Part shown: positions 10,801-46,800 of the stretch, piece after piece | How positions within the stretch are numbered: position 1 is the first letter of the stretch | Layout of the letters: the number at the start of each line of letters is the position of its first letter | Source of the DNA: Antedon mediterranea | Taxonomy: Eukaryota; Animalia; Echinodermata | Assembly (NCBI RefSeq): GCF_964355755.1 | Contig: NC_092670.1 | Span: 16,788,795 to 16,852,794, forward strand | Length of the DNA: 64,000 nucleotides | Direction of reading: 5' to 3' | Position numbers and translations under genes: made by a program | Notes under the pieces: model-generated | The model's input: the letters and a program-made list of their open reading frames with translations, nothing else | The model's database searches: none | Told to the model about the DNA's origin: nothing

Positions 10801-13800
10801 CTATGGGTTGAAGTAACTTTAATACAGAACATGACCAACTATTGAGGGCTACAAATAAACTAAACTTCTACTCCAAGTTTCTATCGTGTTGGAAGATTAA
10901 AATAACAATGTTCCTTTATGATTGCATGTTGCTGATGTTAACTTACTTCACTTTGGGCAATTGCCTCTGCCAGATCTTCCTCTTCTTGAATAGTTTCATT
11001 CTCTAATTTATGCGCTTCATCAAGATGTTTCATCAACACTGCCACCACTACATTCACAAGGACGAATTGCGCCATCAGGACGAACGATACAAAGAACAAC
11101 GGAGCAATTACTGAATTTGCACAACAGTTCTGTTTGCAACTTGCCGATGAATCACACCCATCTGACCTAAGTGTGTCCTGCAAATCAATGAATATGTAAA
11201 TTAGCATATGGATATGCAAATTAGAATATGAGTATGTAAATTAGCATATGAATATAGAAATTAGCATATGAGTATGAAAATTAGAATGAGTATGTAAATT
11301 AGCATATGAACATATAAATCATATGGTTATGCAAATTAGCATATGAATATGTAAATTAGCAAGTATAAATATGTAAATTAGCAAATATTTTTGTATAAAT
11401 AATATTTGTTGGCATGGCATCTTTTGGAAAAGAGTACATACTACTATGGCAATCTAGTCCTTTTTAAGCTCTGTCAATATTCAATGCTTTGGTCTAACAA
11501 CACTAAAAGTTGAATCAATAGTGATGAAAACTGTTCATAATTCCTTATACTCTTGTCTTTGTGTTTAATAACACTCTCATTTTACTATTTACACAGGTGC
11601 TGGAGAGTCTCTTTGTTTTCATCTGTACACTAATCATGCCTTACCTTCATAATACCATTCCAATTATCACCAGTCGCAACACGGAACAGTGTGAGGAAAG
11701 CAATAAAAAAGTTTTCAAAAGAAGCATGCCTGCCAAGACCTTCACAAGGATTGTCTTCAGAACAACCTATGTGTTATATAGAAACGAATAAACAGTATAA
11801 ATAATGATTTTGTTTAGAAAGATGCTCCCTAGTACCATCTGCCATGTTGATTTTATCCCCACCAATCATCATTGCCATCACTGTATTATAAGTCATAATA
11901 TTTAGATAAAATACGGTTCAGTATTACTTCTTACCTAATCGTCCAAATAACTCAACTCCCAAAGCAGCAAATATAAAAAATAAAAGAAAGAAAAGAAGAC
12001 CAAGGTTTCCAACCTGTTGGGAAAAAATTATAAATAAATAACTATCTCATAAGAACATATAAGAAGAAAAACCTGCATTTTTAGGCTAATTTGATAGTAT
12101 GATCAACTGGGCACCCTTGGGCTGGCATTTTGAAAAATAAAACAAATTTGGATGATTAAAAAAGTGAATTTTATTGAGCTATATAATTAGTTTAATTTGT
12201 TACAGCTGGCTGTAATCCCATAGTTAAATATACACCATGTTGTATACAAATTATTTTTAAATATGTCTATATATAAACTGAATTTTACAGTATACAAGTT
12301 AAAGTTATTCCCACGCATTTCTAAAAGCAGATTTGACTTACTATAATTACTACAAAGGTAAAATCTATATATAGCAACAGTATAAAACTACAAAAACAAT
12401 ACTAAAAAATAATACTAAGAAAATAATACGCAACTATATAAAAATGTTATTTAGGTTTTGTTGATGAAAATCATCTGACAAACAAAAATAACTATTATGT
12501 CATGGATGATGTCATAGATTCCAACAGGCTGTGCCAATTACAGCACTTTCAATCACTAAATACGTATACTGTATGGTCAAATATTTATTACTATATTTTG
12601 TAAAATTGAAATGAATACTCCACAATGTTTACCTGAGGAAAAGATTTCTGTACAGTGTACAAAAGGGTACGGATGCCATGAGCATACCTTAACAACTTGA
12701 GAACTACAAAAGACATAACATGCAAAGAAAATGGAGGGAAAAAGCAGACAATAACACTATTAAACAACATGCAACATCAAAAAAATCTATACTGGTAGTC
12801 TATAAACAACATTCAATCTCACGTTCTCAAAAGCATTAAAAAAATTTTAAACAAATGATTATGTGTTTGAAACAAGAGCATCCAATTGATTGTTTTTCTA
12901 TGTTTTGAGAACATGTGTTTGAAGTTACATACTACAATAAAAGCTAGTACAATTACATTTCAATTCAACATTGATGTTTGATGAAATATCCAGAAATTTA
13001 AAGCCATAAGTCATCAAGCAACAGTTTGTCATAATTGTAACTAAGATTGAGGTCAACAACGGATCCAGCTGACCTACTTTTTTATTGTTGAATTGTATCA
13101 CATTGTATGTGACATACATCAAGATCAATTCAAGAACATGTATGCATTTCAATAATGGCATAATAACAATAAGCATTTGATTTTAACATTTAAATACTTG
13201 TCTCGTGCAAGATCCCATGGAAATGTACATACAAGTGACAAGGTACAGGAAATAAACATTGACTTGGTGCTGCATAAGCTTCTTGATGTCAACAATATAC
13301 AGTACGACAATCAACATACATTTCACTACATTATCAGTACATTCATGCACTGTATAGCTAATATGCAAGTGGCAACAATACATCTCTAATGTAAACCATC
13401 TTTATGGTGTAAATACAGTGAGCACAGCATGCTAGGAGGAATGGGTAATGGGTATTAAAATACATGCCAAATTTATGCCATGTACTCTCGACATTACCTG
13501 TGGTATCGCACCCATCAATACACCCAACAGCTCACGTAAACCTTTCATAGCTTTCATTATTTTTAACACTGTAGTGTCAAAGGTCAGCGTAGAAAAAACA
13601 ATATATTATGAATATTAAAAGTAAGAGGAGAAGAAATTGAATTTGTAAATTAAAGAGGTGTATATAGACAATAAAGAATTAAAGCTTTTTCTGTTACTAT
13701 AAACATACTGTATGATATTCAATATATCACTGTACTAACTTACCTCTAGCAATTCTTAAAACCCTCATAACACGTATAATGGTTGGATTAATTGGAATAA

Positions 13801-25800: not shown

Positions 25801-28800
25801 TCTCCAATGAGTAATTTAATTGATAAATGAAAATGTTATTTGGACAAAAAATGCTAATATGGGCTGTATGAAGTCCCTGAATGTTAAGTTTTGTTGTATT
25901 TAAAACGCGCAAGACAGAAAACTGCATTCATCTCTTCTAAAGACATTTCATTCATTAAATATTTTGACTTTGTAAATAAGAACAATATCTCTATTAATGT
26001 CTTTATCAAGAGAGCACTATAAGAACACATCTACATGTAAGGCTCTCATGTTTTACAGGATGGGGCTTAATACGTTTCAGTTGTGATTTATTTTCATATA
26101 AAAACAATAATATTAACATTAATATAATAAATAAAAACATTAATAATCTTGCAGCATATTAGCAAATGTAGAAATACCTCTTAATTAATCTTACAATAGC
26201 ATTACTAGTATATTAAAAAAAGTTGTAAAAATAGTACTGCTTATATTAGTATTGCTTGTGTATATCTGTGATCCACTTACGGTATTAACATCAGTAATGC
26301 TAATATTAAACTGAAAGTGTTATCACATAAAAGACAAAAGTAAACGAATATTAAATACAAATTGTAACTAATACTAAACTAAAACTAAGTTAAACAAAAA
26401 TAATATCATTGCCTCACAAACATGTACAATGTTCGTATTTATGCATATAGCAGTAGTTGCTACAGTATGAAACTCTCGAATCAATGACAGATGGAGAGTA
26501 TTATAGCTGCCAACCAGGAGATAAATAGCTGATATCGAACAGAAGAAGTTACATTCATACAGTTAAAAGTACTTTAATTAGAATAACTATTTATTTTATA
26601 CTGTACTTATTGTTAAAGTTATTTTTAATGTTGTTATTATTATCATCATCATCAAATCAATTTACAAATATTGCACATACAGTATAATATTACTTTTCTA
26701 CAAAGTTAGAGAAAATTATTACCGACAGCATTGCTTATTCAGACAAAGTTAAAACAAAAGGCGTACAACAAAAATGAAACCAACAATTATATTTGTAATA
26801 TTTTAAAAACTATCTAAATTAATGTAAAAGCTATCATATTGGCTTTTGGAGGTTAATCTGCAATTGACCTATTTTTTTTTGGTAAATTGGAAATTAGAAA
26901 TTGGAATACAAATTTTGAAGTGTATAAAGATAATGTTACAGCGGTTGATGTATTTCCCATATTAGTAAAATACATTGAACATAAAAGCTACAGCAGATAT
27001 TCACTTGCAGAGCCTATCAAAGTAATGCATACATTTTATTCTTAAATTCAACAGTTTTTTTTTTTGCTTCAGTTTTAAAAATTACATGTTCTACCTTGTT
27101 TTTGTCTTCTGTTCGAAACTGTAGACAAAAAACTTGTTGAAATTAATAATTTTGCACCAGAGTTAGGATGAACATAGATGGTTAAATATTCAAATATTCC
27201 ATTTAAAACAAACAACTAAATGGTAGGACGATTTGGTGCTACTCGAACAAGCTGAAATGAGGTCACCAAATCTAAATTTCTGAACAAATTTATGGACAGG
27301 ATGATGTCATATCACCAAATTTAAGCATATCACTACCATATTTGGGCACATCACACTTTTTTGTCACATAAAGTTTGATAGTGTATTGATGTCGCTGTTG
27401 GGATAAGACGTACTCGACGCGAACTCCTGGTTAACCATTAAACTCTGTATGCTACAGTGAACACGATATGTTACCGACGTCGAAACGAAGCACACGTGCT
27501 AAGGCTACCACTCCAGCCAGCCCAGACCCGCCAGCTCTACCTGAACAGGAGATGGAGTTGCTCGGCCTAGACTTTTAAAAATTTGTTCAGGATTCTTTTA
27601 AATCTGTCCTACAAGGCCAAGCTCAAATAAGAGAAGATCTAAGCAAATCCATTGAATTTAATTCTGAAAAGATTGCAGTGCTTGAAACGAAAGATAAGGC
27701 GAGAGAATCAACGCTAATTAGCATTTCAGCTGATGCGAGAACAACTAACTGGCTGCCATCTTGAAATTAAAAGAGCCGAACGTTTTTCAAGACGAAATAA
27801 CATCAGGCTTGTTGGCCTTGAATTAAATCCTGGCGAAAATTGCATCTAGATTGCAAACAGTATTTTAAAAAAACATTTCACGCTGTCAACTATCCCTGTT
27901 ATTGAACGAGCGCATCGAGCTGGACGGGGAATGAAAGGTAAATCACCTCATATCTTGGTACGTTTTTTATCTTACGTAACTAAAATTGAAATCATGAAAC
28001 AACGACATGATGCTCTTAAAGATGAAGTGTTCTATATTATAGACGACCTCACCCCAAAAGATCTTGCAGAAAAAAAGAGATGGAAAGACCGAGTCAAAGA
28101 GCTATACAAGGAAAATGGCGATCAACCATCAATAACCTTTTGGTATCACAAAACTTAAATACATAAATTCAACTTTAAGCAGAACGCCTATAGTATATAG
28201 TACACCAACAGACGAATTTCATTTACTAACATGATTATTTATTGATAATCATCTTATTTTTTAAATATTTGAGTCATTTCCAAAAACATATGTTGAATAA
28301 ATACTACAGGACATAATTTTCTCAGAAAACAGCCTTTAAATCAATTAATATGACAGATCTGATAGCAAATATGATTATTTATTCATAGGATCACACATTA
28401 ACTAAAATGAAATGATGGATTCTTATCAAATGTGTTACTACACAGACCTGCTTTAAATTAGTATTTATTTACTCTGTGCGCCCTAGTGTAAAGTGGGTGG
28501 TAAGTGGTAACACCTTTTACGAATGTTGTCATTTTGTCAGTGTACATAATTTACAATTAAAATATTTCTAACCAAGTTTAATAAGACTGAGTACCAATAT
28601 ATATATACTGTATAAACTGGAGTGAATTGATATCAAATGACACTTTTCAGTAATTTGAATAATTAGAAGGTTTCTAGCCAAGTTATAATACAGTACCAAT
28701 ATATATATACTGTATACTGTATATACAAACTATAGTGAATTGATATCTAATGGCAATTACGTTCTGAATAATAACTATTTTTCAAATTGTATATACTACA

Positions 28801-31800
28801 GTGTGTACTCAAATCATGCATTACTAATCAATTAAATGTCATAGTAATTGTATGATGAATCTGGGCAGATTAGAACACATGACCTCAGGGTTAACATCTT
28901 AACCATAGGTTAAATAGCCATATAAATCTCTGTCTACATTATCAAACTAGTTTGACAAAAAAGTGTGATGTGCCCAAATATGGTAGTGATATGACATCAT
29001 CATGTCCATAATATGGACACATCACATTTTTTTGTAACATAAACTTTGATAGTGTAGACAGAGCTTTACACCATCATGAGTACATAGATTTAAAAAAATA
29101 AACGTACCTCAGCAGCAAAACCTTCAACCAATATTGCCACAAGAAGGTTGAAGAGAACATAGTTACCAAACGTCATGAGGGCAATAAAATACAAGGCAGC
29201 CCAGGCAGTGGTTTTGGACATGCCATTATAAAGCACAATATTCCAGTCCTCTTGGGTTAAAATCTAAATAGAAGAAGTCAGAATAAAATGAATCAAATGT
29301 GTGTGCGTGAGGTGCAGTGTGTTGAACGTGATCATGAGTTAGAATCTCAAGCTCTTCGCATTGCTTGTATCCTTAGGCAAGATACTTTTCTTACGTTTGC
29401 CCCTCTCCACCAAGGTTTACAAATGGGTACCTGGCAAAGATCATAAACCAAAAGTGCTGATTAATTGCTTCAACATCCAAAACATAACCAAGGTAAAAAT
29501 GTAAAGTGCTTAAAGGCTTTATGCATTTAATATACGCGCTATATAAGATTGCGCTATATAAGATCGCACTATATAAGATCGACATATATTGGTCTACACA
29601 GTCCCTCCTGTAACAGGAGTACAGTAAACTTTCCTAAACTGGTCTCCTTCCAAATAAAAAAACACCTTAAAACCAGAATCTGAAGATCGCAAATTATAAT
29701 GAAAGTCGGCGATAATATTTCTTACTTGGAAGACAGTCACAGTTGCCCATAGCAAAGAGTCAAAGTTTTTGCGATCACATTCCTGGGTTCCATCATCGAG
29801 ATCGTAACAGAATTTGCAACCAAACAGATGCATGCCCAAAATACTGCAATAAAATATTCAAAACATGCTCAACAACTAGTTCGCCATTTAAGTACAATTT
29901 CTTTCGTATACAATTTATGTTTGTAGTTTAGGTAAATAACAGCTAGTTTTCCAAGAAAGTAATAATACAGTATCTTGTGTAAAAAAGTTCTAGAGTTCTA
30001 TTAATAAGAGTTGAAACCTTTTAACTTAAATAATGTGGTTGTTGTTCTTAGATCGATACAATACCAATGTTAATATTACAAGAAATTTACGATCTAGGTT
30101 ACACTTACAGTCTAACATCTCCCAATGCTGTAAAAAGAATATTTAAATCTATAACATTTAACCTAACCTATATATATATATACCAACCTAAAAATGAATA
30201 TAAATAAGGCCAGGAGGGTGAAGAACGTAGCAACATTATCCATCGTTTTCAGCATAATAAGAAGTTGACGACGTAACGCTGGCATAAACCGCACCAACTT
30301 CAGGATTCGGAGAAGTCTGAATGTTCGCAACACGGTAAGACCACCCTCACCATTTTGAGCAATCTCAACCACACTGAAAACAATATTTGTATAGTTAAAT
30401 TAGATTACTAACCAATGTTAATGAAATGTTGAAAACTCAACCGTGGACCTCTAGTCTAATTCAAATTGTTTCAACTTATTGGACACAGCTTTCTTTTTTA
30501 CAAATATTTTCAAAAAAATAACTATGCATATCTTTATTTAACTACAGACTTTTAAGTGATTTGTCGTCTCCCACTAAAGGTGCAATGTCTATCGATTATT
30601 TTAGATACAAATTAATCCAGAATTTTCATAAATTTAGCATTTAGGCTCTACTACATTGGCGACACACATACAGCTCACTATGACGGTCGGATGGTCGGTC
30701 GGATAACACTAAATGTGAGCATGCGACTGCACCAATGTATATGGCCTTGTTTACTAAAGAATACTGATGAACAAGAATTAGCCGCTCTCTAATTGAATGT
30801 ATTTTAAAACAAAAATACCTGATGATAACTATAGTTCCATCAAACACATTGAAGCCATTGCTAACATAACCTATCAAGCCATAGGCTAAAATCTTCAGAA
30901 TCATCTCCAATGCAAATATACTGGTAAAAATAAGGTTGCTTATTTCAATAGCCTGCGTCAATTCCTCTGGCTAAAAGATACAAATATACGACGAATTTAA
31001 ATAACTTTATAACATACAATGATACAAAATGCTTATACAGTAGAGGTAAACAGGGAGCAGTAAAAATGTGTGAAGGGTAGGTTTATAGAGTTTCATAAGA
31101 ATTTGTGGAATAAGAATCTTTTCTTCCTATTACAGGGTATTTTGCCATGGTCTAATGGTATTCATAGGCAGTTCCAGGGGGAGGAGGAGGCAGTCAGTCA
31201 GATCACTTATTCCCTAACCCTTAACCGTCTCCGTCAACCTAAATTTGGAAAATTAAAATGAAAAATGTAGTACATAAGGTTAAGTTCAGCTTATTTTACA
31301 ATTGTTAGGGACTGTTCCAGCACTGTATCTGTATCCTTAACATACAAACACCATTTCTGGTGATCGTTGGTCAGGAGTCAAGTGCAAGAAGATAAATTAA
31401 TAGCAAAGTGCACTTTGTATTTTCAATGTCAATGGGGCTCAATTTATTCTTAAAACTGGCTAGGTTTGGTGCCATTCTTATTCATTCATTTTACTTTTAT
31501 TTCGGAAACGGACGTCAATATCTACAAAATCAATTGCAGAAATAAGTTTAAATAAAATAGGCAGACATGTACAATAGCAGTCATAGGTTCTAATCCTACA
31601 AAAGATCAAGTTTTCATACAAGGGAAAAAATACAATATTGGTTGATGAGGTAATGTTTAATACAAGTGTGTTATTTACAATTAGTATAGAAGGCATTAGG
31701 TACGTTATCTAATCATAATAATTTGTCTGAAACCTTTTGAGTTGATTACTCATTCTCAGCCAGTTTAAGATTACGATATGAAAACGATTGCGAAATAGCA

Positions 31801-37800: not shown

Positions 37801-40800
37801 GGCAAGGCTTGTGAAGGGGACATGGGTTGTGAATAGGGCACTTTGCTTGGGTTGATAGGCAAGCTTGATTACGTATAGCTGGTAAGGGGGACGGAGGGTA
37901 GTCACGAACTAGAGAGCAAGGGGCAGAAAGTCTCGCGGCAAGTGGCTGGTGCTTCGGAGGACGTAGAGATTTTAAGGCTGAAGGATAAAAAACAGTATTA
38001 AAAAATCTATAAAAATATATATAAAATAAATATATTGTCAAATTAAAATGTTGGTAAGTTACTAAGTTCTAATTTTTTTTTGGATATCTATAGCTCTACG
38101 AATGCTATCAAACATTGTAAAATACATGAATATAATTTTAGAATAGAATAATGATAATGAACTAATTTAATATAATTCCACCTCCCCAACATCATTTGTT
38201 ATTATAAAAAAAAACAACATATTTAGGAAAGGTGAACTTTAAGGGTGATCATATATAGTTGAAGAAATATGTTCAAGATGGTTAAAAATTGATGATCAAA
38301 AACAAAGCAAAGAAAAATTAAATACAAATTTAGTCTCAAGTTATTTAAAATAGCAATATTGCTTTGCTCTTTTTTGTGTGTATTTTGTAGGAATATTAAA
38401 CAATTTTTTGGAAATATTTGTTTCTTCTGGAACAAGCAAGTTAATGATAGTGATCCTACCTGAAGTATCTGCAGATGTGTTAGATATGGCAGGTAAACGG
38501 GCTAAAGGCTTAAGGGACAAGTCTGTATCCTTAAATCGCTGCCACTCCTCAGGGAGCTTATTTGATGAATCAATGTTAGCGCCCTCACTAGCATTAGGAT
38601 TAGCCGCCACCGAAGCCTGGGTTTTATCCTTTGAGTTCGTATTTGGGTAATTAATAGATGAAGCACGATGAATTGAAAGTGTTGTAATAAGGTGGGTACG
38701 GGGTGACCTAACTGGTTCTGGTAATTTCTTACTTTTTTCCGCATCCACGTGAGCAATTCTTTCTGTGCAATATGTTATGGAATGCAACGAGTCTGAGCTT
38801 GGCATTAGATTGTTCGTGGGTGGAACTAAAAAACGATTTTGACGAGTCGGCGACGATCCAATGTCACTGCTCTCTGGGCTTGCATGAGGTGGTACAGGAG
38901 TACAGTTACCAAAATGATAGTGATGATGGTGGTGATAATGATGATGATGCAGATGCACTGACTTTTTTCTCTTTTTTCTACGAAGCGATAATGCAGGAGT
39001 AATTTTGCTTTTACCGTCCATACCTTTGCGCCATTGTCTTAACTTACGTCTACCATGACGTACAAGATGCGCGATGTATTTCAATATTTCTCCGTAACAG
39101 CTTCCTTGTTCGTACGTTGATAAAGTACTTGTCGATTTAAATCGTCGCCGATTTTCCGCCATTAAACGGTTTTCCCTCTGCTTTGTCTCAGAAAACTGTG
39201 TTGCTATGACAACAAGGCAGAGATTTATCAAGAAGAAGGAACCAATCTGCAAAGGAAAATAAATTAATAAAATAATTACTTTATGCTTTAATTGAAGTAA
39301 CTGGCATTCTTTAATTAGGTTCATTAGCAATCCTAATGTAAACACATTTATATTTAACTGGTAATTGCAAAATCGTAGAATACTTATTGTACAATACAAA
39401 GTTTAAATGCATTCCATTATACAGGTACTGTAAATAAATTGGTAGTAATATTATAATACACTATAATATTTTATTCTATTTCAATTGCAATGTAAATTTT
39501 TTATTAACAACCTTAGTTAAAGTTTGTTTGTGATAATAACATATTTTTATATGTATTTGTTTTCTTTTGAGCAAGGCCTTACTGTAAAAAACAACTTACA
39601 GTAGAGTTAAGTTTCAGTAATAAATTAAGCTTTATAATTGATATTATTTGTATTAATGTTTGCATCATTTAATATTGCATTTATATTCACGCATTTCAAT
39701 TAATTATTTTGTAGTTTGAATTTCTAAATGTGTATATCAAACCATGATTGTGTATTTATTTTAAATCTGTCTGAAAGTGGTTTAAATAATTGAATTAGAG
39801 ATACATTATTCCATGATATTTACAGTATGAGAATGGCAATATTATAAAATGAGAAAATATACATAGGTATGATTAATATATTTATTATATATAATTAATA
39901 TTATTAGATAATATCCTGCCATATATAAGCTACATTATTAATATATTTTGACATGAATACAAAGTATTTAAGAAACTGTTATGCAAATAACAAATTAATG
40001 TGTGCATTATTTTAGCAAATTCATAAACAGTGCTGTTTAATGTACATAAATCTAAAATGTTCAATATTGAACAATGAATGATAATTATACATAGAAATGT
40101 TACATATAATGTATGAAAACCTGTTGCATATCCAGGAACTTAGATGGGTATATCCAGGAACTTAAAGATGGGTATATCCAGGAACTTAGATGGGTATAGC
40201 CAGGAACTTAGATGGGTATAGCCAGGAACTTAGATGGGTATAGCCAGGAACTTAGATGGGTATAGCCAGGATGCGTCCAGAAATGACCAAATAAAAGGTA
40301 GATAAAATAAAACTAGACAAATTTAACCCAATAACCAAATTATAATAGATTCCAAATTAGCATTTGTAATAATTTTAATACGGTATTGGAAAATTATAAT
40401 TTTAAGCTTTGTCTACACCATCAAACTTGATGTGTCAAAAAAATGTGATGTGCCCATATATGGATGATGATATCACTACCATATTTGGGCACATCACACT
40501 TTTTTTGTCAAACTAGTTTGATAGTGTAGACAGAGCTTTACAACCAGCCAGTAAGCATATATTATCATTTGATGTATATATTGTGTCCAACATAAACTCC
40601 AGTATTGAATTTAGTCTTTAACTTTCTGTATGAACCTCTCGTTATAAGCAAGTTCCTGCATTTTAGAAGAACCAATATAGTATTCATTTATAAGTTGACC
40701 ATTCAGCATTTATCAAGTCAGTACAAATGTTATTTCTGGACCACCTTAGGTAACCCCTGGATATGCAACTGAAAACTGAATTATACTTACCATACATCAT

Positions 40801-43800
40801 CCTATGCACAGAAACTTAACTTTTTTTCTAATAGCATAATAAGCATAGAATCACAAAGCAAGTTTTATTAAAATTAAGGTATTAATTATCCCTTAGGTTT
40901 ATGAGTGAACATGGGTTTAGCAATGTTGAGGTTTGATTCACTGTGTGGTTGAACACAGTAAACTTACGGCCAACTCAGACAGCGTCGTACGACGAGGCCT
41001 TGTTTAACTTGTTTAAAGTTCTCCTGACGACCTAATACTATGCACAACGTTATCTCTAGACAACTCGCCTCTCGGAATTCAACTCAGATAGTAACCGACG
41101 AGTCAAGACATTTCCTCGTACGATGCTGTTTGAGTTGGCCATTAGACTACAAAGCAATAGAGCGTCTAATACATCTGCACATGCTCACCAACACGTACCG
41201 ACTTTAATGACTATGTCCGTAAACATGTGCAGGTGTTACGCTCTAATGCATCATAGTATTCCGTATAGTGTAAGCTTTGAAATACTTACTACAATAAGAA
41301 CAACAAAGTATGTCCAGTTCCAAAAGCTATGGACATCCTGAACATAATACATTAGTTCACTCCAACCTTCCAGGGTTATAACCTGTCAGATAGAAACAGC
41401 GATGAAGTGAGTCCTCTAAATCAATGGACTACATTGTGGTGGAGGAATGAAATGTGTGCGGTGCATACAATGATTCTAGCAGGATAGATATTGTAAACAG
41501 ATTTTTTCCACCGAATTTACAAATTAACTATTTTATTGTCAATTTTTTTTCAATCGTTTCCACAAAATTGTTAAATTATATAGGGTATACATTTATTTAT
41601 TATCATACAGTTATTTTTAATAGATTATAGCATTACCATAAATAAAGTTCTTTACTCCATGGTTATAAGCACAAACTTTAGGCCAACAAAACCTCCAGGA
41701 GCTATGTTTTCTTAAAATAACCGTATCAAGCATTCAATGGAAATTTGAATGAGAAAAATCTGTTTAGAATATTGAAACAAATAATGCAACCAAAATATAC
41801 CATTTGAAAAAAAGTTAGCTGGGAGTTAATATGCATGAATATGGTAATGCATGATACAAACCAGGAATTGTCACGTGCAACTCATTACTTACTACAATCA
41901 GAAAAACGAAATAGATCCAATCCCATTTTGAGTGACTGTCTTGCAGTTGGTACTGTATATCGACCCAGCCCTCAAGGCTGATGATCTAAATTACAAGCAG
42001 TAAGCAAACTCATGGGTTGACTAACTGTTTATAAAACAGGGGATTAACAGTGTTTGATCATCCAGGTAGGTATAGGAAAACAGGATTATCCAATGAAAAG
42101 GGGGATTAATATTGGATCATCCAAGGTAATCAAAATAATCATATAGTAGCTCATTCAGAGATAAAAGACAAAAATTGCACTTGAACTAATAGTGGTGTTA
42201 GTAGACTACAAGTGCTGCTTAGCTGGATTAACGTTCTCACGTTTTGAAAATGATGTTTGTACATAGGGGTGCCCAGGTGTGGATTTAGCTTTAGCCCCAC
42301 TCCCTAAAATTTAATAGCCATGTCTTTTTAAAATAAAATAATGACTATTTTTATTTTGTCAACCATAATCTATAATGCTGGATCCACCCGTGATACCAAT
42401 GTAAGGGTGTGGGTGACAGAATAGTCTGTTATGGTAGGGGTACTCTAGAAACTTGAAGTTATTTGTATTGTAGCCCTTCCTTGGAAGACCATAGGTCATT
42501 GTCGGTTTATCCAGGTAAGCAAGGCACTCAAAATGAACTTCATTTATATTCATCCATATACTGTAATATCTTATTAATTGTTTTCACTTTCTAATCTGAA
42601 TAAGCTACTGAGTCAAGCACCAAAATCATAGGTGGGAATAGAAACAAAATAGTGAGGTTTTAATAAAATATGTCAAGCATCAAGGTATATCATCAACATT
42701 ATTGATGGGGCAAATTATAATGTGAACATCAATTCATATTGAAATCATTCTTTGCAAGCACCAGTGAAATAAGCAAGTATAAAATAATAAGTGATTAAAT
42801 ACATTATTTAGTTTATCTGTTTTTAATACAATGTACATATATACACCAGGACAGCAGTATTAAAGAGTTGCTATCCAATTAAATTTGAACCGTATCTGAT
42901 CAAGAAAGTAGTATTTTACAAAAGCTTGCCATATTCTTTCTGGCTGTTTTACTTCATTGTTTTGATGTAGATTTCTGATTATTTTATTTGAGATCCATCG
43001 ATCCACACAGCATTGTAATTTGTTTCAGCATTTGGCTTTATATACATACATATGTAAAAGGCATCACATGAATAATAATAATAAGTATTTGGTTTTAAGT
43101 AAAACAAATGAGAACTCAAGTGATGATTAAGTCAATTTGAATTGGAGTGTTGCTTCTTAAAAGACACAAATGTATCTCTTGTAAAGGCAATAATCGACTT
43201 CGTTTTTTGATGTCTCAATCCATAAAGACCAATTTGGTTTCTATTTTACTAGAGTGGAAATAACATATAATAAGCGGTGTGAACAGCTTTGAACATGCCA
43301 CTACCAGTAGACAAACAGTCTACTTAAAACATGCTATGTACTTAATTTCCTTTCCAAATTTCTATGTATTGAAGTTGATAATTGCAATTAAATTATAATA
43401 GTGGCTATCATTGCATTATTATTCAATATACCGGCATTACATGCACCTGTAATACACTTGAAACTTGCCAAAACATATAGAGAACAAAATAGTCATCAAT
43501 TTTGCCCCATCTCCTTGGAATATATAACAAATAATCTAATATTTTTAATCTCATTCCCCTTATTTTTGCCAAATTATGTACCCTCCTTCCCCGGCATTTC
43601 CTGGGACTATATAGTCATGTAAAGATTTTAAAATCAATATAATATTGAAGAAGTAAATGGCCCGATACAAGTTCAAAGGCATCTAAAAAGTCGATAGTGT
43701 GGTTAATATTACTGGTGAAAATATAGGGTCAGTGTGGGCCATTGGAGAACATTTTTGATAAAGGGTTTGCAAAATGCATAATGAGCTATATATCTTTAAT

Positions 43801-46800
43801 TATTATTTATAATTTATAATAAACAAAGCTGGCCATTGAATTGGAGATATATTGAAATAATTATATAGAAGGAAATTAAATTAATAAATGTAACTAACCT
43901 GAAAGATTGCTACCCATGCGTATAAGATGTTATCAAATGAAATTGAACCTAGAAATGGGTTGAACGAACTAGTTTCACAAACAGTATAATATTGGTTCCA
44001 GTTTGTGCATTGTCCATCATCAGACCCATTGCCTATGAACATGGTGTTATTGCAAATAGTATCATCTACTGGATAGGACGGCCTAATATCATCAGTGCAC
44101 TGCAGCATCCCCTTGTCTCCTTCAAGGCTGCACACAAAGTCCTCATACACGTCATCAGGTCGATAAAAATCGGTCAAATTTCTGTAAATATGAATAATTT
44201 ATTGTCTATATTTATTTATGGTAAATTGCACATTCTTGATGTTTTTTATTATGAATTGCAAAATGTCACGTCAAGGCTTGTGCATATAAAGCACTATATT
44301 ATGTGTTTCCTATTTAATGCGTTTTAAATGTTATAAGTACTTGTTTTAATTGTGTTAAGTTACTATTTTGTACAAGAACACTTGAGGTACCTTGAGAGTA
44401 GTGAATAAAATCGATAAAAAGTTATTTTTAACTTCAGATTTAACAATTAGGAATCAATCTGATATTAAAGACAACATCTTAATGCAGACATAAGGTAGCA
44501 TTGACGTCATCAACATTATGTGCTTATTGAATTGAGAAATGAAGGACCTTTTGATAAGCACATTTGCTCAAGACATTAATGTGGATTTATTTTTATTTAC
44601 TTTGATATTCTGTATAATCAATTGACATTTAAATACATTTATCTAATATTAATAATAATTATGACAATAGCACTTTAATTACTTTAGTTTATTTCCTTGA
44701 TCTAATTGCGTAATTGAAATATAAGAAAACAAGATGAATGGAAGGGATGACAAAAAAATGCAAAGCTCATACACAGTGGAGGATGATGTTCAGTTTCCCC
44801 TCCTCAAAATTGCAAACTTTACAGGTTCATAGGGAATTCTACAATGTCTGCAATAATGTTTAAGTTTATATGAGATAGTCACTGCGATAAAAACAGTGTA
44901 TGATTATGATAATGGCATAAACTAGGTGTACAAAATCACTAAAAAAGAAGAATATACAAAATGTAGTTACTGCAGTAACTGCAGTAGAGTAATTTTTACA
45001 TGGTCTATAATGTACTTATTGAATAACAGTTAGGTGATCTTGTCTCATCTGGGTGACAAGTTCTAATTGTTGCTTCTGATTGAAACCTATCCAAACTAGA
45101 GATACCTTTGACATAGTATAATCGGTCTACTACCAGTATGCACACAAACGTTCTGTTTATGCTGACACTGACTGCATCTCAATAATAATAATGTATTAAA
45201 TATGATTATATATTTCACGGTGTTAACGACAATGCTAATGTGAGCTAATAGTGCATTAAATGTCATGAGGTGTGTAACGCAACCAATCAGAATGTTCGTA
45301 AGTCAATCAATTCAACTACCATAGGCAACATCTACTTTCAATCCCTTTTTTAGAGCATGGTCAATTATGTGATTTACTGCGTATTTACGTAGATCACTGA
45401 ACACGAGACAAAGTATAAATATTAAGTGAAACTGCTGTGCAATGCTATCTAGTTAGACCTTGTTTCTACAGAATTATTTTACGTTTATAGAAAAAATATA
45501 TTGATAGTTTTATCGTAAATTGTTGAAAGGGTTCAATGATGTAACAGCTAAAGGGTTTACATTTGAGATTCAATTAGGAATGTGATACATGTGTTCAAAA
45601 CTAAAAATAACTTTATTCTTAAACGTTTAATCCAACATTATCTGTCATGTTATATAAAATTAATCATCTTTTAATACACACAAAAAGTGTCTTAGGAGTT
45701 GGTTGTATAATGTTAAACTCTGTCTACACTATCAAACTAGTTTGACAAAAAAAAGTGTCACATGCCCAAATATGGTAGTGATATGCTAAAATACGGTAGT
45801 GATATGACATCATCATGTCCATATATGGGCACATCACATTTTTTGTCACATGAAGTTTGGTAGTGTATACAGGGCTTCAAAACATATTGCCCCTCATTTG
45901 TTTTATAGAAGAGTGTCCTTTAATAGGGCTGACTCTAAATAAAGTTTTTCATTTTAACTGTATTTATTATGAGAATGGTCTTTACCAATCATACCCAAAG
46001 CCTGGTTTCCATAAAATCGCCACACCGTCGCTACAGCGTTTCCATTAAAATCGCTACACGCGCAGATGTCGCTGCGCAATTGGGAAGGCTCCCCGATTCA
46101 TCGCAGTTCAACTTTGCCTATTTTGTCGGCGATGAATCGTATATACGTACCAAAGAATATTTAGCGCTCGCGTACTAGATTCCCGATAAATTTTAGCATT
46201 TCCATATAATCGCTATGCTGTCGTGTAGCGATTTTTATGGAAACCAGGCTTCATATTCTATATTGCCTGTATGCTATTTATATATATTTGTACTATGAAG
46301 TATACAAAAGCTGCCTCAATATAAATACTTGAGAAAATTCTTGATTTTTGAAGCGCCTCTGTACAAACATTAATTTCTACATACACTTCTTGCATGTATT
46401 AATGGTATTTGCTGTCAAGAAATGACTGAAGAATATATTAAATATTAAAATATACAACACTATGGCCTAAAGTTTTGGATATAAAAAAAACATATTATAA
46501 GATATAATAAACTCCCAAATGTCATGTAAATTATTTATAACTTAGGGCAGAAAAGTAATAGGTTGATCTACAGTTTTGCATAACACGTAGGTGGACGGGC
46601 TCTTACACGCAGAAAACCCACAATGTCACCTGAGCATCATACATGAAATTTTGCTTATGCCCTCAACTAAAACTAATAATCCCACATGACTGAGGTAGTT
46701 GACATGCGAATCAAACTTGTTTTATTGATTTATCAATAACGACGGATGTGTTGATTGGCTTATTAATTGTTCGCACGCAAGGCAAAACACAATCTTGTTT

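Follow-up and report, generated by a model that had tools for sequence, protein, structure and literature searches.

Tandem domain I pore exons, apparently spliced one at a time, in an echinoderm Cav3 calcium channel gene

Tandem exons that are used in an either/or fashion are common in voltage-gated channels; the accessible text of PMC9741552 counts ten independent events in human and fly calcium channels, among them a single T-type event, which is conserved across protostomes. In that pair, exons 12a/12b of protostome Cav3, the exchanged module is the domain II turret, which ends before the selectivity filter, comes in versions differing in length and cysteines, and acts as a Na+/Ca2+ switch via a Lys (accessible parts of PMC4436565, PMC7382465, PMC9694082 and PMC5379919). 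NALCN has duplicated exons that carry the filter residue itself, 15a/15b and 31a/31b, the former being reported in echinoderms (PMC4436565, accessible text). Exons 8/8a of Cav1.2 (CACNA1C), and a similar pair in Cav1.3, are tandem either/or exons of the domain I pore-to-S6 region; according to the accessible text of PMC3060452, the Cav1.2 pair yields channels with similar electrophysiology and different drug sensitivity, is controlled by PTB and shows leaky double inclusion.

The window analyzed here, by which we mean the whole 64,000-nt stretch of Antedon mediterranea DNA, holds a gene spanning approximately 55300-6200 on the minus strand, with the four channel repeats in order by tblastn. 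The filter motifs of repeats I to IV carry E, E, D, and D (an EEDD ring), the named top homologues of the protein are annotated T-type channels, and in the PDB it matches Cav3.1-3.3 best. In a quick tree of 20 proteins, built from Cav3 sequences only and from a homologue set without a crinoid or ophiuroid reference, it groups with echinoderm Cav3 (support 99), outside the clade of sea urchins and sea cucumbers and with no resolved branch relative to sea stars, a position that probably reflects a crinoid or brittle star. By homology, the gene is thus a Cav3 (T-type) calcium channel alpha-1 gene, and the ring, the homologues, and the tree agree with the preliminary description on this point.

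Its domain II turret exon (exon 12; 29726..29845, minus strand, approximate ends) is single, and a duplicate-exon scan over 24 exons found no 12a/12b pair. Two pairs of duplicated exons were found among the 24, one in the domain I pore and one in the domain IV S4-S5 linker; two further weak matches (E 0.005-0.006) were rejected as chance. Published Cav3 pore splicing centers on protostome 12a/12b, and echinoderm Cav3, with its single exon 12, has these two other conserved pairs.

The domain I pair consists of exon 7A (41893..41985) and exon 7B (41290..41382), both on the minus strand. Each copy is a 93-nt open frame between an AG acceptor and a gtaagt donor, and the intron separating them (41383..41892, minus strand; 510 nt) has GT-AG ends and a branch-point-like CTCAC at -26 from B. 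The preliminary description had given the same coordinates and peptides. Both exons encode the end of P1, the filter Glu, the P2 helix, the L6 loop, and the start of S6; exon 7A has Gln at exon position 11, and exon 7B has Met there and Phe at position 20. Upstream, the exon at 43899..44181 (minus strand; exon 6 by inferred numbering) encodes the domain I turret and P1 helix and ends at 43899 with a phase-0 donor. Downstream, exon 8 (38485..39246, minus strand; its 3' end is that of the aligned range only) begins at 39246, also in phase 0, and encodes the rest of IS6 and the start of the I-II linker. Exon 7 received its number by counting back from the domain II turret exon 12. In human Cav3.1 it corresponds to residues 350-380, and the domain I filter Glu354 (PMC7382465, accessible text) falls within this range. 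A degenerate motif for Cav3 exon 7 matched the window exactly twice, at A and at B, and never in 100 shuffles.

Exons A and B share 18/31 amino acids, 54/93 nucleotides, and 10/31 third codon positions, and 12 of the 18 identical residues are written with different codons; the low third-position identity and the differing codons point to an old duplication. An assembly artefact and an allelic duplication were both rejected on the grounds of the saturated synonymous divergence, the conservation in other species, and the DNA contigs of three runs. Between them, these contigs extend over the two exons and the larger part of the intron, with no one piece running through the full stretch.

In a second haplotype, found in runs X2-X4, 15 other bases stand in place of a 55-nt stretch of the A-B intron (41649-41705). 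Downstream of exon B, the intron holds a 22-nt tandem repeat of about six copies (40120-40275) and two inverted-repeat elements with 60-nt and 38-nt arms (40404-40538 and 40958-41150). Short contigs of high depth from the DNA runs overlap the latter, which is therefore probably a genomic repeat.

The echinoderm pair resembles 12a/12b in channel family and in offering either/or exons for a pore module, and differs from it in lying in domain I, including the filter, having copies of equal length, and lacking a conserved charge change. With Cav1.2 8/8a it shares the tandem either/or arrangement in the domain I pore-to-S6 region, an intron of a few hundred nucleotides, ordinary splice sites, and the lack of a distal branch point (PMC3060452, accessible text). 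The Cav1.2 exons, however, are 104 nt long, encode IS6, and shift the frame when included together, whereas A and B are 93 nt long and encode only the filter, P2, and the start of S6; the channel family and the exon borders also differ, and the two pairs are independent events. In NALCN the swap puts Lys in place of the filter Glu (PMC4436565, accessible text), whereas both copies of the echinoderm Cav3 pair retain Glu.

Among 48 echinoderm proteins that cover the region, 11 carry the A-type segment and 37 the B-type segment, while none carries both and none neither. Isoforms of both types are predicted in Lytechinus variegatus (1 A/11 B; e.g., XP_041474169.1 vs XP_041474170.1), Patiria miniata (3 A/9 B; XP_038064367.1 vs XP_038064369.1), and Acanthaster planci (1 A/10 B; XP_022091426.1 vs XP_022091428.1), with B as the majority RefSeq form in all three; their same-length isoforms differ in the A/B segment alone. 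For Strongylocentrotus, six current models are of type A and an older partial model is of type B. In searches confined to proteins, the six Diadema and holothurian sequences were all B-type (A-type 0/6), and no second version of the exon was seen in the fetched amphioxus, tunicate, vertebrate, mollusc, or arthropod proteins, including 21 Branchiostoma proteins with one version (15 of the 61 main-cluster members among those listed). For Saccoglossus, the exon is skipped in an older model and present in a single version in a newer one. Repeated domain I segments in Pollicipes and Zophobas proteins consist of identical long blocks and were set aside as artefacts of assembly or annotation.

In the literature searched, mostly without subscription papers, a domain I exon pair of echinoderm Cav3 is not described; in the one supplement searched, that of PMC7382465, the spacing of the alignment text could have masked matches to the motif. 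The splice site had been put forward as novel, which holds for the Cav3 splicing literature searched and not for sequence databases, where the swap already stands as alternative RefSeq isoforms in sea urchins and sea stars. As judged from these comparisons, the A/B pair is real and conserved and, in the sources searched, was known before as automatic RefSeq isoforms only.

A metagenome scan covering 30/64 parts yielded at least 119 exon 7 loci, and one of those listed, L038, has an A-type followed by a B-type exon, in the same order as in the window and with a 480-nt intron; this contig is the one exon-order comparison outside the window. Between the window and L038, the A copies share 25/31 and the B copies 23/31 residues, and cross pairs share 18/31; synonymous sites are saturated, with dN of 0.19 for A and 0.13 for B. 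The orthologues and dN/dS contrast that the preliminary description had proposed looking for were thus found for both exons, and by their substitution pattern both copies are conserved under purifying selection across echinoderms. In a 31-column exon tree, the copies cluster by type and not by species (0/500 label shuffles were as clustered), each type on one side of a branch: B with nine rows and support 95, A with six rows. It follows that the pair predates the split of sea urchins and sea stars. That split lies about 480 million years back.

An exon of the jellyfish Rhopilema falls among the A-type rows of the same tree, so A may be the older form. A may preserve an older loop, with B carrying the common bilaterian one. 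The Rhopilema esculentum sequence (P0214) has an L6 loop like that of the echinoderm A type and a Lys at filter+4.

A 2766-nt contig from run X1 aligns exactly to exon A and contains none of B, and its loose ends match the upstream exon where it ends and the downstream exon where it begins. The junctions 43899>41985 and 41893>39246, two of those by which the preliminary description had suggested checking the pair, are accordingly real, with B skipped. This splice evidence in the window species comes from one contig of one run whose record bears no RNA label, within an alignment of sequencing runs that covered 41100-42200 only. Exon B had no cover from X1, which, as contigs drop rare variants, speaks neither for nor against its use. 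The junctions seen in the window species are those of A; both B-type and A-type isoforms are predicted in four other echinoderm species, and B would probably be used in the window species as well. Double inclusion was found neither in the 48 echinoderm proteins nor in the X1 contig, which has A alone, and these contigs and predictions, in which a rare double inclusion could be missed, support the proposed either/or use.

Since both exons are 93 nt long, a multiple of three, nonsense-mediated decay cannot act on A+B or skipped products and cannot enforce exclusivity, as had been pointed out. Steric exclusion was rejected, the branch-point-like site at -26 from B giving no distal-branch-point geometry, and AGs at -33 and -35 upstream of B leave no long AG-free zone. 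Incompatibility of U12 and U2 sites was likewise rejected, as the four flanking donors all begin with GT and the acceptors all end with AG. Docking-site duplexes in the window and in L038 stayed within shuffles in all four tests of a crude design (6, 10, 19, and 18 of 20 shuffles as low), and no dock-selector arm layout was seen among the best 25 of the 118 inverted-repeat pairs listed in the window. By default, and by likeness to Cav1.2 8/8a, which is under PTB with some leak, exclusivity would arise from regulated splice-site competition under splicing-factor control. Any leaky A+B or skipped product would presumably be removed at the protein level, because both exons keep the frame.

Exon position 11, which is Met360 in Cav3.1, is Gln in 6/6 A and Met in 9/9 B exons, and Gln11 is absent from the other 123 of the 129 distinct peptides gathered; the remaining fixed differences are Leu vs Ile/Val at position 14, a non-aromatic residue vs Phe/Tyr at 20, and Ile vs Ala/Thr at 24. 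The filter Glu, said in the preliminary description to be kept in both copies, is present in 15/15 A and B exons, and among these 15 exons there was no changed filter residue, conserved Lys, or conserved charge change between the types. Exon positions 5-23 sum to a net charge of -3 in 6/6 A exons and of -3 or -4 in 9/9 B exons. The Lys and the extra Asp described for A do exist in the window sequence; they are not conserved among A-type exons, Lys20 being P, P, P, Q, and P and Asp22 being I, V, V, V, and T in the other five. At filter+4, the acid is D in A and E in B in the window and the reverse in sea stars. This is the same D-to-E change that was made at the DCS locus of Cav3.2 (DVNG to EVNG), which the accessible text of PMC2151654 describes as without marked effect on mole-fraction behavior, selectivity profile, reversal potential, or gating. 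The proposal that permeation is tuned through these particular residues is therefore not supported: Lys20 and Asp22 are specific to the window, the charges are about equal, and the D/E swap made no marked difference in Cav3.2.

Helical spacing, the only criterion used here, would place positions 7, 11, and 14 on one face of P2 and positions 20 and 24 on one face at the top of S6, from which we infer a repacking of P2 against S6. As the conserved change is the P2 Met-to-Gln exchange with a probable repacking of the loop and S6, tuning of gating or pharmacology is likelier than tuning of permeation. The explanation we lean towards is that of an old, conserved domain I pore pair, spliced singly, whose swap repacks P2 and S6 and tunes gating or outer-pore block with Ca2+ selectivity unchanged. 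Mature transcripts would carry one exon at a time, the swap would repack the P2 helix against the top of S6, and the repacked P2-S6 contact would shift gating or outer-pore block and pharmacology while Ca2+ selectivity is kept.

Mutation of the domain I filter of Cav3.1 alters activation, inactivation, and recovery kinetics (bioRxiv 10.1101/626069, accessible text), which suggests that this pore segment is coupled to gating. On the other side, the similar electrophysiology of the Cav1.2 8/8a forms (PMC3060452, accessible text) suggests that gating may barely change in an A/B swap. Also on that side, the two residues described as lining the IV-I drug fenestration of Cav3.2, Leu377 and Ile403 (PMC11143251, accessible text), correspond in our alignment to exon positions 4 and 30, both of which are identical between window A and B. 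The two exons are natural variants with which the influence of P2-S6 packing on T-type gating can be studied. Echinoderm eggs and sperm have T-type currents, on which the A/B swap may bear.

That the swap instead alters permeation, either Ca2+ vs Na+ or Ca2+ block, and so substitutes for the protostome 12a/12b switch, we consider unlikely. A polar Gln at this place in P2 might displace the filter Glu or the adjacent domain II beacon Asp, and Gln11 is indeed unique to A in an exon that includes both the filter and P2. The window gene has one exon 12 only, Strongylocentrotus is listed with the 12a form only in a published alignment (one matching row, PMC7382465 supplement, accessible part), echinoderms are stated to lack Nav genes (PMC9694082, accessible text), and the same exon has a filter change in another lineage (Glu/Ala, below). 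Set against this are the filter Glu kept in 15/15 exons, the absence of a conserved Lys, and the nearly equal charge, besides the lack of a marked effect of the D/E change at filter+4 in Cav3.2 (PMC2151654, accessible text). The outer ring is much less consequential than the beacon site (PMC10120453, accessible text), and starfish egg T-type currents are reported to be mostly Ca2+ (cited in PMC5379919, accessible text).

It is also rather improbable that A and B are near-equivalent and that the pair is kept for folding, surface delivery, or a tissue-specific amount of channel via unproductive forms. Cav1.2 8/8a differ little in electrophysiology (PMC3060452, accessible text), and the in-frame by-products (A+B, or the skip) would be non-functional, so that regulation of amount could work; the type-specific residues, however, stay fixed from class to class at saturated synonymous divergence, which argues for separate selection on two proteins. 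Very unlikely is the reading in which the window species uses A only and B is a silent remnant of an ancestral pair, for although the lone spliced contig has A and window B has Ser-Glu-Leu at positions 8-10, differing in all three residues from the Thr-Asp-Ile of the other eight B exons, B retains its open frame, its two splice sites, and every B-diagnostic residue, has a dN of only 0.13 at saturated synonymous sites relative to L038, and is untouched by the six differences of the second haplotype (X3, X4) in 41100-42200, all of them intronic, a small number of sites that makes this last point a weak one.

The same exon has been duplicated in another way in what seems to be a protostome lineage. 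A search with an A-type profile found three reading frames (P0360-P0362) with two tandem copies of the exon, the second of which has Ala in place of the filter Glu; the intron between these copies is 42-60 nt and, by its length, is short enough to hinder double inclusion. In the metagenome scan, a Glu copy followed by an Ala copy occurs at no fewer than 16 of the 119 or more loci (including L003, L007, L015, and L032), representing at least 12 distinct pairs with introns of 78-149 nt. The other loci comprise at least 43 with a single Ala copy, at least 52 with a single Glu copy, at least one echinoderm-type pair, and at least one with two Ala copies, and six were not parsed. At L083, two Ala-type copies are adjacent, and the first of them lacks a donor and is broken at its 3' end; a recent partial duplication could account for this, as could an artefact of assembly.

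An open frame with AG/GT ends is found in 60/61 Ala copies among the loci listed. The distinct Ala copies, at least 50 in number, use all four Ala codons and have Asn instead of Asp at filter+4 in every case; among the loci listed they differ pairwise by a mean of 11.7 synonymous vs 3.4 non-synonymous codons, a pattern indicating that the Ala exon copies are under purifying selection. In all five loci checked that have both flanking exons (L004, L005, L006, L017, and L069), the Ala copy is the sole exon between the flanks, which suggests several Cav3 paralogues, each keeping one exon. Neither echinoderm A nor echinoderm B groups with the Ala-lineage copies, which makes a separate duplication likely. 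A 106-column tree places the Glu/Ala loci, with weak support, among protostomes and outside the arthropod and mollusc rows; an Atlas search returned no taxon for the Ala-exon lineage, and our guess is that it might be annelid.

We regard it as fairly probable that the Ala exon is real, used, and permeation-altering in this protostome lineage. If the other three filter residues are standard, the Ala form would have an AEDD ring. The Cav3 filter ring is always EEDD according to the accessible text of PMC10120453, a statement that a conserved Glu-to-Ala filter change in the same exon would contradict; no description of an AEDD Cav3 was found in the literature searched, mostly without subscription papers. 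This Glu/Ala pair is a closer parallel to NALCN than the echinoderm pair is. In a broader proposal, exon 7 would be a second selectivity-switch module, duplicated at least twice; its echinoderm part, in which the A form alters Ca2+/Na+ permeation in place of the absent 12a/12b, appears doubtful.

The second pair of the window gene consists of two 71-nt exons on the minus strand, copy C (13498..13568) and copy D (12633..12703). Both encode versions of the end of domain IV S4 with the S4-S5 linker; copy C runs from phase 1 to phase 0, and copy D stands in the position of the canonical segment; double inclusion of C and D would shift the frame. In copy C, 23/25 residues match the alternative segment of Lytechinus, Patiria, and Acanthaster isoforms. 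Among sea urchin and sea star isoforms the C-type segment hardly varies, and in Acanthaster most RefSeq isoforms carry it (9/11). With two either/or pairs, one gene could give up to four channel types.

Short frames at 27579-28158 on the plus strand, inside a Cav3 intron, resemble what we take to be a retroelement ORF1 fragment. In Branchiostoma, isoforms of several species (P0311 vs P0313, P0319 vs P0316, and P0325 vs P0208) exchange a pair of homologous versions of the domain IV turret and P1, 31 vs 33 residues long, which appears to be another either/or pore exon.
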